Source of the DNA: Halobacteriota archaeon
GTDB taxonomy: Archaea; Halobacteriota; Bog-38; Methanoflorentales; Methanoflorentaceae
NCBI GenBank assembly: GCA_050013755.1
Contig: JBEKER010000005.1
Location: 864 to 64,863, forward strand
DNA: 64,000 nt
Direction of reading: 5' to 3'
Below the pieces are notes generated by a model. It saw nothing but the letters and a program-made list of their open reading frames with translations. It did not search any database and was not told the DNA's origin. Within the stretch, counting starts at the first letter, position 1. Every line of letters begins with the position of its first letter. The translations under genes and the position numbers were made by a program. Shown piece after piece: positions 42,659-58,415 of this stretch.

Positions 42659-43102
42659 CTACCGACTCCTAATTATCAGCACCGGAACCTTAGCACCCCG
42701 CACGACTTTGTCAGCCACACTGCCGATCAGCAGACGGTCTAAACCTTTTCGCCCGTGCGATCCGATGATGATGAGGTCAATATCATGACTCCCCGCGTAT
42801 GTGTCCAGTTCTTCGGCCGGGTGTCCGTCGAGCACTGTGGTCACGATCCGGTCTTCATTTACGCCGCGCGAAGCCAGGTCTTTTTTGGCGTTCGCGACGA
42901 TGTTCTTTCCCTCAACGAGGAGCACGTCGTACATGTTTTCCCACGATGAGTCGACTGGGTAGGCGGTGAACCCCGCGATGTCGAGAACGTACGCGATGTG
43001 GACGGTCGCATCGGTCAGTCGCGCGAAATAGGCCGCGTTATCATACACGGGGGCCATCAGGTCCCCACCATCGGTTCCGATCAGGATGTGTTTATATTCC
43101 AT
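42659..43102 (-). CDS. uspA: universal stress protein (UspA family), copy 1
   Basis: YKHILIGTDGG...DLIIIGSHGRKGLDRLLIGSVADKVVRGAKVPVLII. Confidence 0.88.
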   Translation of the reverse strand: MEYKHILIGTDGGDLMAPVYDNAAYFARLTDATVHIAYVLDIAGFTAYPVDSSWENMYDVLLVEGKNIVANAKKDLASRGVNEDRIVTTVLDGHPAEELDTYAGSHDIDLIIIGSHGRKGLDRLLIGSVADKVVRGAKVPVLIIRSR

Positions 43103-44077: not shown

Positions 44078-44581
44078 TCAACCTATGCGAATGATGGTCG
44101 GCGTTAGCGTGGGGATGGAGGTCGGCGTTGCTGTGGGGATGGAGGTCGGCGTTGCTGTGGGGATGGGGGTCGGCGTTGCTGTGGGAAACGGAGTGGCTGT
44201 GGGGACGAACGGCGTTGGTGTGGGAACGAACGGAGTTGGTGTGGGAACGAATGGAGTTGGTGTGGGGCTCGGAGATGGCGTCGGAGTCGCTGAAGAGACC
44301 GATATCGGGGTGGATTGGGGTCTTTGACTAAGAACGACTGCCGCTGCTATAACCAGAAGCACGACGACGACTACGCCGATGATGACGAGTCTCCTTCCCG
44401 TGAGCGTGCCACCTAATCGTTCCACCAGTAGCGGATTCTCATCCTCGAGCGGCGGTTCGTAAGGTGGCGCGTGGGCAGGAGCAGCACGATCCGTGACGGG
44501 TTCTCCGCACATAGGGCAATATCGAAACTCGCCTGGGAGAATCAACTTACAAGACGTGCACAGTTTCTTCCTTGCATCCAT
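44078..44581 (-). CDS. zinc-ribbon membrane protein with Thr/Pro-rich repeat tail
   Basis: N-terminal C-x2-C...C-x2-C (CTSCKLILPGEFRYCPMCG), one TM (LVIIGVVVVVLLVIAAAVVL), then PTPTPFV x3 and PTATPTSI repeats to the C-terminus. Confidence 0.7.
   Translation of the reverse strand: MDARKKLCTSCKLILPGEFRYCPMCGEPVTDRAAPAHAPPYEPPLEDENPLLVERLGGTLTGRRLVIIGVVVVVLLVIAAAVVLSQRPQSTPISVSSATPTPSPSPTPTPFVPTPTPFVPTPTPFVPTATPFPTATPTPIPTATPTSIPTATPTSIPTLTPTIIRIG
44111..44263. repeat. coding tandem repeats: 24-bp x3 (44111-44182) and 21-bp x3 (44201-44263)
   Basis: Read directly. The units differ by 0-2 nt. They encode the TP-rich tail on the minus strand. Confidence 0.9.
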
Positions 44582-45501: not shown

Positions 45502-45740
45502 CTGGCACTGTGGCGTCGCTTTCATAGCCGTTGCACCGAAAAAGAGGGCGCAGAAACTCTCTTTTTGCTTTTTTGACGTTGATTTCCCGCTGAGCGCTTT
45601 GTCATTCTCGACGTCGCGGGCCAGGCTACGCGTCAGCGGATGGTTGCGACATCAAAAACGGAGTATTTACTCATATGATCAGTATTTTTTTGGTATTTTT
45701 CTGACTGATGGCCAAATTCTTTGGTATTCTTCCGAAAATC

Positions 45741-45766
45741 ATATAAATGTTGAGTATGTTACTCAA
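45741..45766 (+). promoter_or_regulatory. TATA-like box (ATATAAA) plus 17-bp palindrome TTGAGTA-TGT-TACTCAA upstream of lrp
   Basis: The TATA box at 45741-45747 is ~30 nt from ATG 45775. The perfect 7-bp-arm palindrome at 45750-45766 covers the expected transcription start. Confidence 0.5.
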
Positions 45767-45774
45767 GTTTACGT

Positions 45775-46242
45775 ATGACGGAAGAAGCAGACTCTGAAAT
45801 GGATGAGACCGATTTAGCGATTCTTCACTCGCTTGTGAAGAATGCGCGGATCACGATATCGAAGATGTCACAAGAAATCGATGTGCCCGATGCGACCATC
45901 TCTCACCGGCTCAAGCGGCTTGAGCAAGCGGTGATCAAGGGCTACACGGTGATCCTCGACCCCCCCACGATGGGCCTCGAGATGACGGCGATTATCATCA
46001 TCCAGACAGAGACCGAAAAGCACGGCGCGGTGAAAATCGCGCTCTCGAAACTTGAAGAAGTTTCAGAGGTGTACAGCGTGTCAGGAGAGTACGATCTTCT
46101 GATAAAGCTCTGGGCCCACGACATGGAGGAGCTCAATCACGTCATAAACAGTAAGATACGCTCGATTGACGGCGTCGAGGACCTGACCGAGATGATCGTC
46201 ATGGAGCGCGTGAAGGAGGAGATAGTCCCACTGATAGAGTAG
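45775..46242 (+). CDS. lrp: Lrp/AsnC-family transcriptional regulator
   Basis: [45 protein letters not shown] (HTH_AsnC) plus a C-terminal RAM domain ([17 protein letters not shown]). Confidence 0.88.
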
Positions 46243-46256
46243 CGGAGGAGAGATCG

Positions 46257-47498
46257 ATGCCCTTTCTAAGCGAGATGATAAAAAAGCCGGTAGTCGACAA
46301 CACAGGAAAAGTGGTCGGAAAGCTCATTGACGTTATCGTATCAACCGACCGCCCCTATCCGAAGGTTAAGGCACTCAGTGTCCGTACGGCCAAAGACACA
46401 ACCATCGCCATCCCGTGGGAACAAGTGAAACGCTTAGAAAAGGAAATGACCCTGAAAGTCGCGGCGAGTGAAGTCGCCGCTTATGAGAAAGAGGAGCACG
46501 AGGTGCAGCTTGCGACCGATGTCCTCGATCGGCAGGTGGTCGACGTTGAGGGAAAGAAGCTGCGCCGCGTCAACGACCTGCAGCTCGCGCCGACGAATGG
46601 ATCGTACCGCCTCATCGGCGTGGATATAGGCGTGACGGGACTTCTGCGCAGGCTCGGAATTGAGCGCGTCACCGAGCGCGTGGGAATTCACCCAGAGGAG
46701 AACTACATCGCCTGGACCGATGTCGACTCAATACGGAGCGACCCAATGAGCGTCAAGTTGACCGTGCCGAAGTACGGCATCACGAAGCTCCACCCCGCCG
46801 ATATCGCCGAGATCGTCGATCAGCTCAATGTTCAGGAGGGGTTGACGCTCATCAACAGCCTCGATGAAGAAGCAGCGGCCGACACGCTCGAAGAGACGAG
46901 CGAAGAGCGGCAAGTCTCGCTCATCGCAGGCATGGACGCCGAGCGCGCCGCCGATATCCTAGAAGAGATGTCGCCAGACGACGCCGCCGATCTGCTGGGG
47001 GATCTTCCCGCCGACCGTGCCGAGGCAATCTTGGAACTCATGGAACCGGACGAGTCGGAGGATATAAAAGAGCTCCTCGAGTACCCCGAGGATACGGCCG
47101 GCGGCATTATGACGAATGAATTCATCGCCGTGAACAAAGAGCAGACCGCCCAGCAGGCGCTTGACGAGGTCCGGAAAGCCGCAAAATCGGTCGAGAGTAT
47201 CTACTACATCTACGTTACCTCCAACGGTGATGATCTCGTCGGCGTCGCCTCGCTTCGCGAGATCTTGATAGCGCCGGCTGACCAGAGGCTCTCCGCGATG
47301 ATGCACACCCATATTATCACCGCCGATGTCCGAGAGGATCAGCACGAAGTCGCACGAAAGATTGCGAAGTACAACCTGCTGGCGCTTCCCGTCGTCGAGA
47401 AGGAGTCCAAACTTAAAGGCATCGTCACCGTCGACGATGCGATTGACATTGTTTTGCCCACTGCGTGGAAGAAAAAGGTGCCCAAGATGTTTGGCTGA
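46257..47498 (+). CDS. soluble MgtE-like regulatory protein: PRC-barrel(s) + MgtE N-domain + CBS pair, no membrane domain
   Basis: PVVDNTGKVVGKLIDVIV (PRC-barrel-like), the acidic helical MgtE-N region (AADTLEE...RAADILEEMSPDDAADLLGDLPADRAEAILELM), then GGIMTNEFIAV...LLALPVVEKESKLKGIVTVDDAIDIV (CBS pair). The ORF ends where MgtE TM helices would begin. Confidence 0.8.
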   Translation: MPFLSEMIKKPVVDNTGKVVGKLIDVIVSTDRPYPKVKALSVRTAKDTTIAIPWEQVKRLEKEMTLKVAASEVAAYEKEEHEVQLATDVLDRQVVDVEGKKLRRVNDLQLAPTNGSYRLIGVDIGVTGLLRRLGIERVTERVGIHPEENYIAWTDVDSIRSDPMSVKLTVPKYGITKLHPADIAEIVDQLNVQEGLTLINSLDEEAAADTLEETSEERQVSLIAGMDAERAADILEEMSPDDAADLLGDLPADRAEAILELMEPDESEDIKELLEYPEDTAGGIMTNEFIAVNKEQTAQQALDEVRKAAKSVESIYYIYVTSNGDDLVGVASLREILIAPADQRLSAMMHTHIITADVREDQHEVARKIAKYNLLALPVVEKESKLKGIVTVDDAIDIVLPTAWKKKVPKMFG

Positions 47499-47514
47499 TT
47501 TATGAGGCCAGCCC

Positions 47515-48780
47515 ATGGATTACAACATCTTCCTCCGGCACCTGCGAGACCTCCGTGGACCCACGCTGACCAGAATTATCATATTTCTGTCGATAATGGG
47601 TCCCGGCATTATCACGGCAAGCGTCGATAATGACGCGGGCGGGATCACCACCTATTCGCTGGCCGGTTCACAGTTTGGCTACTTGTTGCTGTGGACGTTC
47701 ATTCCTATGACAATAGCGCTCGCTGTCGTTCAAGAAATGGGCGTTCGAATGGGGGTCGTCTCAGGAAAGGGCCTAGCCGCCCTCATTCGGGAACGAGCAG
47801 GCGTACGCATCACTTTTTTGCTAATGATCGCCCTGTTGGCGACCAACTTCGGCAATACCCTTGCTGAGTTCTCAGGCATCGCCGTTAGCGCGGGGATCTT
47901 TGGCGTACCTCGCTTGATCGCGCTCCCGTTAGCGGCGGCCTTCGTCTGGGGTCTCGTGATTAAGGGCAGTTATAAGAGCGTGGAAAAGGTGTTCTTGCTG
48001 GCGTCGCTTCTCTACGTCTCGTACATAATATCCGGGTTCCTGGCGCAGCCTGACTGGCATCAAGCAGCGCTGCGCTCCGCGTTGCCGCAGCTCAGCTTTA
48101 GCCAGGCATACCTGACCATACTTGTCGGCTTAGTGGGGACGACGATCGCGCCGTGGATGCAGTTCTATATCCAGTCATCAATTGTCGAAAAAGGCGTACC
48201 CGTTAGGGATCTCATTTATTCGCGAATCGATGCCATCAGCGGCGCGGCGGTAACCAATATCGTCGCTTTTTTCATTGTCGTCGCGTGCGCAGCAACGATC
48301 TACGCTCGCGGCATCCAAGTGAATAACGTAGCCGATGTCTCCGCGGCGTTGCTACCGTTGGCAGGGCAGTATGCGAGCGTTCTTTTTGCGTTCGGTTTTC
48401 TCAACGCTTCTTTGTTTGCCGCAAGCATTTTGCCTCTTTCGACGGCGTACGTCGTCAGCGAGGGGCTGGGTCTCGAGGCGGGAGTTTCAAAAAGTTTCCA
48501 CGAAGCGCCTGTGTTTCACGGGCTATACTTAGGGCTCATTGTAGTCGGTGCGCTCGTGATAATGATCCCCAACGCCCCGTTGCTCTCTATTCTCTACTTC
48601 TCTCAGGTGGTCAACGGCATTCTTCTGCCCATCGTCCTGATATTCATGCTCGTTATCATCAACGATAAGAGCGTAATGGGGGAGCACGTCAATTCGCGGA
48701 TCTACAACTATATTACAACCGCCACGGCCATCATCATGATCGGATTAAGCGCAGGCCTCATCGCTGCTACGTTCCTATGA
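47515..48780 (+). CDS. Nramp-related transporter with NRMT-type (Mg2+-type) binding-site substitutions
   Basis: SLC11 fold (GPGIITASVDNDAGGITTYS in TM1; LVGLVGTTIAPWMQFYIQSS in TM6), 11 TM, 421 aa. D-A-G-G replaces the canonical D-P-G-N, and T-x-x-A-P-W replaces A-x-x-M-P-H. Confidence 0.8.
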   Translation: MDYNIFLRHLRDLRGPTLTRIIIFLSIMGPGIITASVDNDAGGITTYSLAGSQFGYLLLWTFIPMTIALAVVQEMGVRMGVVSGKGLAALIRERAGVRITFLLMIALLATNFGNTLAEFSGIAVSAGIFGVPRLIALPLAAAFVWGLVIKGSYKSVEKVFLLASLLYVSYIISGFLAQPDWHQAALRSALPQLSFSQAYLTILVGLVGTTIAPWMQFYIQSSIVEKGVPVRDLIYSRIDAISGAAVTNIVAFFIVVACAATIYARGIQVNNVADVSAALLPLAGQYASVLFAFGFLNASLFAASILPLSTAYVVSEGLGLEAGVSKSFHEAPVFHGLYLGLIVVGALVIMIPNAPLLSILYFSQVVNGILLPIVLIFMLVIINDKSVMGEHVNSRIYNYITTATAIIMIGLSAGLIAATFL

Positions 48781-49208
48781 ACGGCGCGAACATTCGCGAA
48801 TATCACTTCGCGACTTGTGAAAAGGGAGGGCTAATGGGCAGAAGTAGTGGGGCGCGGCCTTTCTGACCTTGCCTTGTAGCTAGGGAGGTGAATCAAGCAA
48901 GAAGCAGGCAGGTGTAAGGAAATGAGGCAACCATGCAACAGATGTGCACGCTACGCCCCAACCGAGGTATTGCCCATTAGCATGTGCATATAATAGCACT
49001 CATATTTAATATAATTATCCTATAATATTTATCCGAGGATATTAAGCGAAGTTCTTGTGTGGGCTAAGGGCTGTCCCAGCGTCTGGAACTCGTGCCTCGA
49101 GGTAGGTGCGTGGATACTCTGAGACGTCATTCACAGATTATCGTTCGACACTTCATTACGACAGAGAGAATCATAACACAGCAAAACTGATACGCTCGAG
49201 AGCGCACA

Positions 49209-49652
49209 TTACGCGCCGTGAACGACCATCACGGGAACCGAAGCTGTACGGATGACTTTGTCAGTCACATTGCCAATGAGCAATCGATCTAAGCCTTTTC
49301 TCCCGTGCGTTCCGACGACGATGAGGTCGATCGCGTGGCTCCTCGCATACGCATCAAGTTCTGCGGCCGGGTGCCCCTCAAGCAAAACGTCGATGATTGA
49401 GGCTTCGGCCACCCCCCTCTTTATCAGCGCCTCTTTCGCTGCGTCAAGAATCCGCCTCGCTTCTGCTTTGATAATCACGTACGTTTCTTCCCACGACGCG
49501 TCAATGGGCTGGGCCCCAAAGCCCGTTATGTCTAAAACGTACGCAACGTGGATCGTCGCCCCTGTCAGCTGTGCGAGATACACACATTCGTCAAAGACCG
49601 CCTCCATAAGCGACGAACCGTCGGATCCGACTAAGATGTTCGCGAAGTCCAT
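49209..49652 (-). CDS. uspA: universal stress protein (UspA family), copy 2
   Basis: ANILVGSDGS...DLIVVGTHGRKGLDRLLIGNVTDKVIRTASVPVMVV. Paralogue of 42659..43102. Confidence 0.88.
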   Translation of the reverse strand: MDFANILVGSDGSSLMEAVFDECVYLAQLTGATIHVAYVLDITGFGAQPIDASWEETYVIIKAEARRILDAAKEALIKRGVAEASIIDVLLEGHPAAELDAYARSHAIDLIVVGTHGRKGLDRLLIGNVTDKVIRTASVPVMVVHGA

Positions 49653-49716
49653 CCATCTCACCCTCTTTCAAGCTTGCTTCTTAACCTCGCTGACTCCGTA
49701 TTTTGTTTGCGCGTGG

Positions 49717-57899: not shown

Positions 57900-58415
57900 A
57901 TGGCTGATGAAAAAAAGAGTTCTATCTGGCTGCGAATCCTTGAAATCATCGCAGGTCTTATCATCCTTGTCCTGGCCGGCTACGTCATCGCATATCCAGG
58001 AGTGGCAATAGCAACGCTCATAGCCTTCCTATCAATCGCGCTGATTATCCTCGGAGTTGCATATTTCATACGAGTATTTGCAAAAGGCATTTCCGGATGG
58101 CGACGACTGCTCAACCTGATTATGTCGGTGCTGCTGGTCATAATCGCCGCCCTAGTAATCGACAATCCGTTCATCTACGGATCACTGACGCTCGTCTATC
58201 TGCTCGGCTTAGCATTGTTGTTCGCCGGGATAGCGAGTGCCGCGCGCGGCACCATAGGAGGAATCGTCGTCGGGATACTCGGAATTATCATAGGCTTTGT
58301 CGTGATAATCTTCCCGGGTCTCGGCTTAGCAACGCTCGTGTTCCTGCTGGCCGTGTTCCTGGTAATCTTCGGATTAGAGTCGATAATCTCCGGGATCATG
58401 GGGAGATGGGTCTAA
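57900..58415 (+). CDS. hdeD: HdeD/DUF308-family membrane protein, copy 3
   Basis: MADEKKSSIWLRILEIIAGLIILVLAGYVIAYPGVA... is very similar to copy 1, down to the C-terminal GRWV. AAGGAGGTG lies 9 nt upstream of ATG 57900. The track ORF starts upstream at 57756. Confidence 0.75.
   Translation: MADEKKSSIWLRILEIIAGLIILVLAGYVIAYPGVAIATLIAFLSIALIILGVAYFIRVFAKGISGWRRLLNLIMSVLLVIIAALVIDNPFIYGSLTLVYLLGLALLFAGIASAARGTIGGIVVGILGIIIGFVVIIFPGLGLATLVFLLAVFLVIFGLESIISGIMGRWV

Follow-up and report, generated by a model that had tools for sequence, protein, structure and literature searches.

Most genes for NrmT transporters, i.e., Nramp-related magnesium transporters (NRMTs), adjoin a gene for the cytoplasmic domain of MgtE, giving rise to what have been described, for bacteria, as 'mgtE-nramp operons' (Shin et al. 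2014, PLoS Genet, PMC4072509). For the 'MgtE-like fragment' encoded by these operons, Shin et al. proposed either cytoplasmic feedback regulation or instead a chaperone role, with PRC barrels, archaea, and Lrp going unmentioned in that work (PMC4072509). The NRMTs themselves have been defined in terms of a helix-1 DxxG, a helix-6 TxxA/T, loss of the helix-6b histidines, and absence of H+ coupling, with EleNRMT displaying uncoupled transport of both Mg2+ and Mn2+ (Ramanadane et al. 2022, PMC8806188). Considered here is a three-gene unit, lrp / mgtE-head / nrmT, found within a 64,000-nucleotide (nt) stretch of DNA, 'the window', from a Halobacteriota archaeon of the Methanoflorentaceae (assembly GCA_050013755.1, contig JBEKER010000005.1, positions 864 to 64,863, forward strand).

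This locus is an archaeal member of the known mgtE-nramp operon kind, one which possesses in addition a lineage-specific Lrp cistron. The original prediction for this DNA, which had supposed that no such partnership had been described, in that respect is mistaken, as Shin et al. (2014, PMC4072509) had reported the gene pair in bacteria. The feedback-regulation hypothesis was itself published in 2014 and so is not new. Searches of the open-access literature for Lrp together with Nramp, archaea, and magnesium, and for NrmT together with MgtE after 2015, returned nothing relevant beyond the 2014 and 2022 papers. Three details, that is, are without a description found in the open-access literature: the PRC extension of the head, the archaeal Lrp cistron, and a promoter box.

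Organization of the Operon

The unit consists of three plus-strand open reading frames (ORFs) which, by their listed coordinates, are separated by 14 nt and 16 nt, just as originally reported, and Pfam confirms the identities which had been assigned to the genes (lrp, MgtE-type head, and Nramp-related transporter):

45775-46242, + strand: Lrp/AsnC-family transcription regulator, 155 amino acids (aa), HTH_AsnC plus RAM/AsnC_trans_reg ligand domain (Pfam)
46257-47498, + strand: soluble PRC + MgtE_N + CBS-pair sensor, 413 aa (Pfam)
47515-48780, + strand: NRMT-clade Nramp-fold transporter, 421 aa (Pfam PF01566, E 6.5e-90)

Shine-Dalgarno-like sequences are present both before the sensor gene (GGAGG, 46244-46248) and before the transporter gene (GAGG, 47504-47507). 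A Joint Genome Institute (JGI) gene call on the identical contig L001 (6433-7617) begins the transporter at an internal Met, yielding a product of 394 aa. As an MDYxIF N-terminus is conserved in archaeal homologues, the 421-aa form, and with it the 16-nt gap, is supported.

The Transporter as an NRMT

Residues 44-395 of the transporter align with positions 1-357 of 357 of PF01566, i.e., with the whole of the Nramp/LeuT-type fold profile (Pfam). The closest solved structure is that of EleNRMT (7qia; E 2e-111, 45% identity across 397 aligned residues), with the best match to a classical Nramp, that to DraNramp, reaching an E of just 4e-25 and other classical Nramps doing no better. Within transmembrane helix 1 (TM1) is the motif VDNDAGGI, of which D40-A-G-G43 (nt 47632-47643) aligns to EleNRMT D55...G58, giving the DxxG. 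Within TM6 is GTTIAPW (nt 48136-48156, including W214), of which T209-T-I-A212 corresponds to EleNRMT T224...A227, giving the TxxA/T. More generally, metal-site residues D40, G43, E118, T209, A212, W214, and Q364 are identical to EleNRMT D55, G58, E133, T224, A227, W229, and Q379, respectively, with a constant offset of +15. Both of the TM6b histidines of the H+ pathway furthermore have been lost, with W214 present at the first position and I219/Q220 at the second (N/Q in EleNRMT), and no His is found within transporter segment GTTIAPWMQFYIQSS.

Judged by sequence, the transporter is a member of the NRMT clade of SLC11 proteins, possessing every sequence feature by which that clade is recognized. 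The original assignment to the NRMTs is upheld in this regard by the DxxG/TxxA signature, by the loss of the TM6b histidines, by EleNRMT being the closest solved structure, and by every characterized site residue of EleNRMT being identical in the window protein.

The Sensor as an MgtE Head Lacking a Pore

The second gene encodes a soluble MgtE cytoplasmic head, consisting of tandem PRC modules, an acidic N domain, and a CBS pair, and does not encode an MgtE channel. Its parts are as follows:

46266-46463, + strand: PRC-barrel domain 1, sensor aa 4-69 (PF05239, E 2.4e-11, 43.9 bits versus a gathering cut-off of 21.2; predicted local distance difference test, pLDDT, of 86-93 in the AlphaFold2, AF2, model)
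46500-46760, + strand: second, divergent PRC-like beta module, sensor aa ~82-168 (PF05239, sub-threshold E 0.0064, 16.9 bits)
46788-47093, + strand: MgtE_N helical acidic domain, sensor aa 178-279 (PF03448, E 4e-30)
47103-47456, + strand: CBS pair, sensor aa 283-400 (two Pfam CBS domains)
47457-47495, + strand: short basic tail PTAWKKKVPKMFG, sensor aa 401-413, net charge +4, in place of the acidic plug helix of MgtE

The match of the sensor to TIGR00400 (mgtE) is limited to positions 25-252 of that profile's 450, with a score of 198.6 that falls below the cut-off of 232.75, indicating that the protein ends before the membrane domain. There is no PF01769 match in the sensor, nor indeed an MgtE transmembrane domain anywhere in the 64-kb window. 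Sensor residues 175-401 align with the cytosolic domain of Thermus thermophilus MgtE (TtMgtE; 2yvy, E 3e-38), with the end of the sensor aligning to TtMgtE residue ~266, i.e., within the plug-helix region, and with sensor aa 173-279 carrying a net charge of -28 over 107 aa. The AF2 model, of mean pLDDT 75.5, retrieves MgtE cytosolic domains with Foldseek at E ~1e-16. The partial TIGR00400 match, the alignment to 2yvy, and these Foldseek matches together sustain the original description of the protein as an MgtE head without its pore. As for the N-terminal ~180 aa of the model, these match the PRC-barrel proteins CdpB1/CdpB2, 8qzo (Foldseek). The second PRC-like module is beta-rich in the AF2 model, the sole backing for its assignment being this AF2/Foldseek likeness to 8qzo.

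Conservation of Mg2+ sites was assessed by aligning 56 NRMT-linked sensors with TtMgtE, using the site definitions of Maruyama et al. (2018). Both Mg4 ligands are kept, with TtMgtE D91 corresponding to window D241 (conserved in 49 of the 56 sensors) and D247 to D394 (50/56), as is the Mg6 ligand, TtMgtE D95, which is D245 in the window and is found in all but one of the sensors (55/56). The Mg7 ligand, TtMgtE E59, is D209 in the window, with E or D present in 37/56.

The original prediction also described the head as sensing ATP, a part of its claim which finds no support here. That is, with ATP-site contacts taken from Tomita et al. (2017), Y170 and R187 of TtMgtE are kept, as Y317 and R334, and the D188 position is occupied by E335, but the residues which hold the adenine are replaced, F227 by L374 and N203 by H350. 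As F227A abolishes ATP binding by TtMgtE, ATP sensing by the window protein in the manner of TtMgtE is not supported, though the sensor may bind ATP in some other mode.

PRC-Bearing MgtE Channels

The PRC part of the sensor is family-wide, being conserved in bacterial NRMT-linked heads as well. A search with sensor aa 1-172 against 1.84 billion representative proteins yielded 1628 clusters. Among these PRC matches is a sizeable full-length class, of ~585-656 aa, consisting of PRC (a tandem N-terminal extension) + MgtE_N + CBS + MgtE membrane domain. Its members are 34-41% identical to the window sensor across aa 1-399 and from there run on into an acidic plug helix (EEAxEDI) and pore. One of them, P0421, is annotated as 'magnesium transporter [Dehalococcoidia bacterium]', with P0379, P0398, and P0425 among the others. 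As these channels align to sensor aa 1-399, the same head does elsewhere gate a Mg2+ pore. In a rough neighbor-joining tree, lacking support values, the soluble heads form one group located beside the full-length PRC-MgtE channels.

On this comparison of sequences, the sensor amounts to the head found in a subclass of MgtE that bears PRC modules, minus plug helix and pore. The idea that the PRC barrels might be an NRMT-specific adaptor was considered and rejected, since full-length MgtE channels carry the same module. No paper on the PRC-bearing MgtE architecture was found in the open-access literature upon searching for PRC-barrel together with MgtE and CBS.

Recurrence of the Head-NRMT Pairing

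To what extent heads neighbor NRMT genes was surveyed by searching a single genome from each species for NRMT-specific peptide patterns, which yielded at least 557 relatives. The best 80 loci were kept, and head genes were sought in these by tblastn using the window proteins. A complete head gene is found beside the transporter in 57 of these loci, and a head cut by a contig end in 4 more. Head-linked loci thus total 61 of 77 that are informative, the remaining 3 of the 80 being uninformative, and the pairing therefore recurs in other genomes, as would be expected from the original proposal of a functional association. Such a survey of neighbors, which that proposal had called for, furthermore finds 55 of the 57 complete heads directly upstream of the transporter gene and on the same strand, with the exceptions being L014, in which the head is downstream, and L043, in which it is ~2.3 kb upstream. 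A frameshift in the head gene is seen only in L077 among the 57.

Head-NRMT loci span more than 10 phyla, with the surveyed loci including those from Omnitrophota, Acidobacteriota, Nitrospirota, Syntrophales, Chloroflexi, Firmicutes, Planctomycetota, Zixibacteria, and others, along with archaea. At several of the head/NRMT junctions the genes overlap by 4 nt or have gaps of less than 30 nt, which suggests co-translation of the two. Bacterial cassettes have no conserved third gene, and head-less loci no common replacement neighbor, with only lineage-local synteny seen in either case.

The Archaeal Lrp Cistron and Its Promoter

The first gene of the window unit encodes both Lrp domains, PF13404 (HTH_AsnC, E 4.6e-10) and PF01037 (AsnC_trans_reg, E 2.7e-19). 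As no NCBIfam equivalog model reaches its cut-off, no specific Lrp orthologue can be assigned. An Lrp gene precedes the head in 8/8 of the archaeal survey loci and in 0/72 of the bacterial. It also does so in five additional archaeal settings whose flanks are unrelated, among them that of the cultured Methanobacterium paludis. Inclusion of an Lrp regulator in the same unit, as originally described, hence is a property of archaea, i.e., of all 14 of the archaeal cassettes examined and despite their differing flanks, and not of the bacterial loci. In two Methanobacterium-type loci a gene with Cation_efflux + ZT_dimer domains, i.e., of the cation-diffusion-facilitator kind, is located directly downstream of the cassette and on the same strand (L085, 7886-8794, M. 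paludis CP002772; L090, 7211-8104); it may pair uptake with efflux in these loci and is absent from the window.

In Firmicutes loci L044 and L075 it is instead an M-box riboswitch which is found ahead of the unit, tying the head-NRMT pair to Mg2+. Neither RF00380 (M-box) nor any other Rfam family is matched in the window, whether at the gathering threshold or at E <= 10, and no M-box is seen in the seven archaeal loci scanned.

Upstream of the window lrp gene are the following:

45539-45575, + strand: stem-loop plus oligo-T tract 3' of the upstream HEAT-repeat gene, a terminator-like match
45723-45733, + strand: GGTATTCTTCC, the window copy of a GGTAAT-nT-WCC box, ~7 nt upstream of the TATA box
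45741-45747, + strand: TATA-like box ATATAAA, ~30 nt 5' of the lrp ATG, with a purine-rich CGAAAA, resembling a B recognition element (BRE), before it

The stem-loop likely is the 5' boundary of the transcription unit. Position 45741, from which the unit originally had been said to start, coincides with the TATA-like box, and as this box is only ~30 nt before the ATG, the lrp cistron would appear to be leaderless or nearly so. The CCGAAAATCATATAAA or CCAAAAATAATATAAA arrangement at the TATA box is common to close relatives L002, L005, and L082.

The GGTAAT-nT-WCC box, which often is palindromic, is found ~7 nt 5' of the TATA in 9/11 archaeal lrp promoters, for a density of 6.4 per kb in promoters versus 0.115 per kb across the remainder of those loci. 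In L004 it is the perfect palindrome TTGGTAA-T-TTACCAA. We infer that the box is a candidate operator for the cassette's own Lrp. Box-like matches at 58304 and 58361, each with one mismatch and within a membrane-protein ORF, were set aside as due to chance. The TATA box is followed, ahead of the lrp ATG, by a perfect 7+3+7 palindrome, TTGAGTA-TGT-TACTCAA (45750-45766), with a related palindrome, GAGTATTTACTC, at 45661-45672. These were dropped as a conserved operator given that exact matches to the pattern are limited to the window and to identical contig L001, with close relatives keeping AGTAATACACTCAA at the position of the 45750-45766 palindrome. That palindrome nevertheless could be a second, lineage-specific operator.

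The window cassette is closer to those of Methanobacteriota (L002-L008), at 70-72% identity for the NRMT and 72-86% for the Lrp, than it is to that of the nominally closer relative Methanocellaceae L019 (60% and 53%, respectively), which suggests movement of the three-gene cassette between methanogen lineages.

Flanking Sequences

The NRMT gene and a universal stress protein (Usp) gene converge, their 3' ends being separated by a 428-nt spacer in which there is a strongly AT-rich island (48975-49045) with repeated TATAAT/ATATTTAA-like elements. This is an odd site for promoter-like sequence, and no Rfam match is found in the window. Two paralogous Usp genes in fact flank the region, at 42659-43102 and 49209-49661, both on the - strand (PF00582, E ~1e-30 each). 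An ORF at 44078-44581, also on the - strand, encodes an N-terminal zinc-ribbon-like CxxC...CPxC, one hydrophobic segment, and a long Pro/Thr-rich repeat, PTPTPFVPTPTPFV...TATPTSIPT.

Proposed Restraint in Trans and Its Alternatives

The interpretation which we consider here foremost, and to which we would give about an even chance of being correct, is that a Mg2+-sensing head restrains the NRMT in trans, with Lrp controlling transcription of the operon. The transporter, that is, would take up hydrated Mg2+ (and Mn2+) with the membrane potential as the driving force and with no coupling to H+, and such an uncoupled uptake route presumably would benefit from a cytoplasmic brake. The head would bind Mg2+ at the bridge between N domain and CBS pair (Mg4, D241/D394; Mg6, D245; Mg7, D209), compacting when Mg2+ is sufficient, with the head having kept the ligands by which the N domain closes upon the CBS pair at millimolar Mg2+. 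The compacted head then would lower uptake in trans, much as, in MgtE itself, this head acts in cis upon the pore. Action would have to be in trans because the covalent plug helix has been lost, and the basic C-terminal tail that replaces this acidic helix is a candidate element for contact with the transporter. Lrp, in turn, might control the operon via the GGTAAT-nT-WCC box by the TATA, thereby filling the slot occupied in Firmicutes by the M-box.

Various observations weigh against such restraint. Sixteen NRMT loci with ample flanking sequence have no adjacent head, and a comparison of transporters from head-linked (61) versus head-less (16) loci for a 'docking signature' yielded no position present at >= 80% in the one and at <= 25% in the other. 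In the sensor, Mg5 is half lost (D226 is N373, with D250 kept as D397), while H, T, K, and K stand in place of the plug- or membrane-facing E216, E255, E258, and D259, respectively, and the Mg2/Mg3 residues are gone. With co-expression of A. capsulatum ACP_2976 and ACP_2977, rescue was unchanged by the fragment; NrmT genes complemented without it; and the A. capsulatum NrmT-clade transporter looked to be primarily an importer of Mn2+ (Shin et al. 2014, PMC4072509). The GGTAAT-nT-WCC pattern, moreover, was both derived from and counted in one set of promoters, is weak in the window (1 mismatch), and is absent in L005 and L082.

The Mn2+ result is the basis of one alternative, i.e., that the transporter here is mainly an importer of Mn2+, or of mixed divalent cations, with the head sensing Mn2+ or some other signal. 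The A. capsulatum protein too has an adjacent head (Shin et al. 2014), Acidobacteria homologues carry the same GTTIAPWM signature, EleNRMT moves Mn2+ as well, and the archaeal loci are without an M-box. We nonetheless view this as unlikely, since the metal site matches that of Mg2+-transporting EleNRMT residue for residue, the Mg2+ sensor retains its conserved Mg4 and Mg6 residues, and related Firmicutes units are found behind Mg2+ riboswitches. To be viewed as improbable to the same degree is a head that makes no contact with the transporter, serving instead as a Mg2+ buffer, as a chaperone, which is the alternative put forward by Shin et al. (2014), or in archaea as a co-regulator which relays Mg2+ status to Lrp. 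The lack of a docking signature and the functioning of NRMT transporters without a head both are in keeping with this idea, and the three genes always being together in archaea is in keeping with the co-regulator version. The head, however, is equally conserved beside the NRMT in 53 Lrp-less bacterial loci, meaning that a role which depends on Lrp cannot apply generally. The same head, furthermore, gates a pore in its full-length relatives, and the tight and at times overlapping gene junctions fit with stoichiometric partners.

Far more improbable than either, indeed hardly credible, is adjacency without functional meaning, that is, the remains of a decayed MgtE which happen to adjoin a transporter unrelated to it. 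The head is, to be sure, an MgtE without its pore, but its ORF is intact (about 410-450 aa), with the 57 complete copies coming from more than 10 phyla and displaying conservation of both functional acidic residues and a distinct basic tail, and for the PRC module there are 1628 clusters of representative proteins.

Restraint in trans by a Mg2+-sensing head may be generalized, though doubtfully, to the suggestion that the PRC + MgtE_N + CBS head is a portable, trans-acting Mg2+ brake which over evolution was detached from the MgtE pore and reused on an unrelated LeuT-fold carrier, and that the archaeal Lrp, alone or with the head, might be a Mg2+-responsive replacement for the M-box. If true, then a regulatory head would be common to a channel and a carrier, and methanogen-related archaea would possess, in the Lrp, a first transcriptional switch for Mg2+ that is based on a protein.

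Significance

The role of the MgtE-like partner of NRMTs has been in question since 2014, the issue being how uncoupled Mg2+ uptake avoids cytoplasmic overload. The window itself adds no new principle, but the survey surrounding it gives practical handles. As the partner is a head from the PRC-bearing subclass of MgtE, its split form can be compared directly with the full-length one, and the conserved Mg4 and Mg6 ligands are the ones to mutate. Archaea, including the cultured Methanobacterium paludis, for their part offer a fixed Lrp-head-NRMT cassette with a conserved promoter box, one that is tractable for the study of Mg2+-dependent transcription.

Comparison with Known Systems

Of proteins with solved structures, EleNRMT of Eggerthella lenta (PDB 7qia/7qic/7qji/7qjj) is similar to the window transporter in terms of its 45% identity and seven identical site residues. 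It differs in having been studied alone, with no partner protein discussed in the paper (PMC8806188). The TtMgtE channel (2yvx/2zy9; cytosolic domain, 2yvy; ATP complex, 5x9g/5x9h) is homologous to the sensor over the N domain and CBS pair (E 3e-38), sharing the ligands of Mg4 (D91/D247), Mg6 (D95), and Mg7 (E59, as D). Unlike TtMgtE, the sensor is without a plug helix, is without a PF01769 membrane domain, and has an extra tandem PRC extension of ~170 aa. That extension is found as well in the full-length PRC-MgtE channels, for which the head architecture, PRC + MgtE_N + CBS, is that of the sensor. Those channels, though, continue into plug helix and pore, whereas the sensor stops at its basic tail and its gene adjoins that of an NRMT. 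Closest of all in gene arrangement are the operons of Shin et al., i.e., those of C. acetobutylicum (CA_C0685) and A. capsulatum (ACP_2976/ACP_2977), in which there is the same order, with the head gene immediately upstream of that for the NRMT. The window cassette differs from these in its archaeal host, in being without an M-box, and in having as its first cistron a conserved Lrp/AsnC gene.

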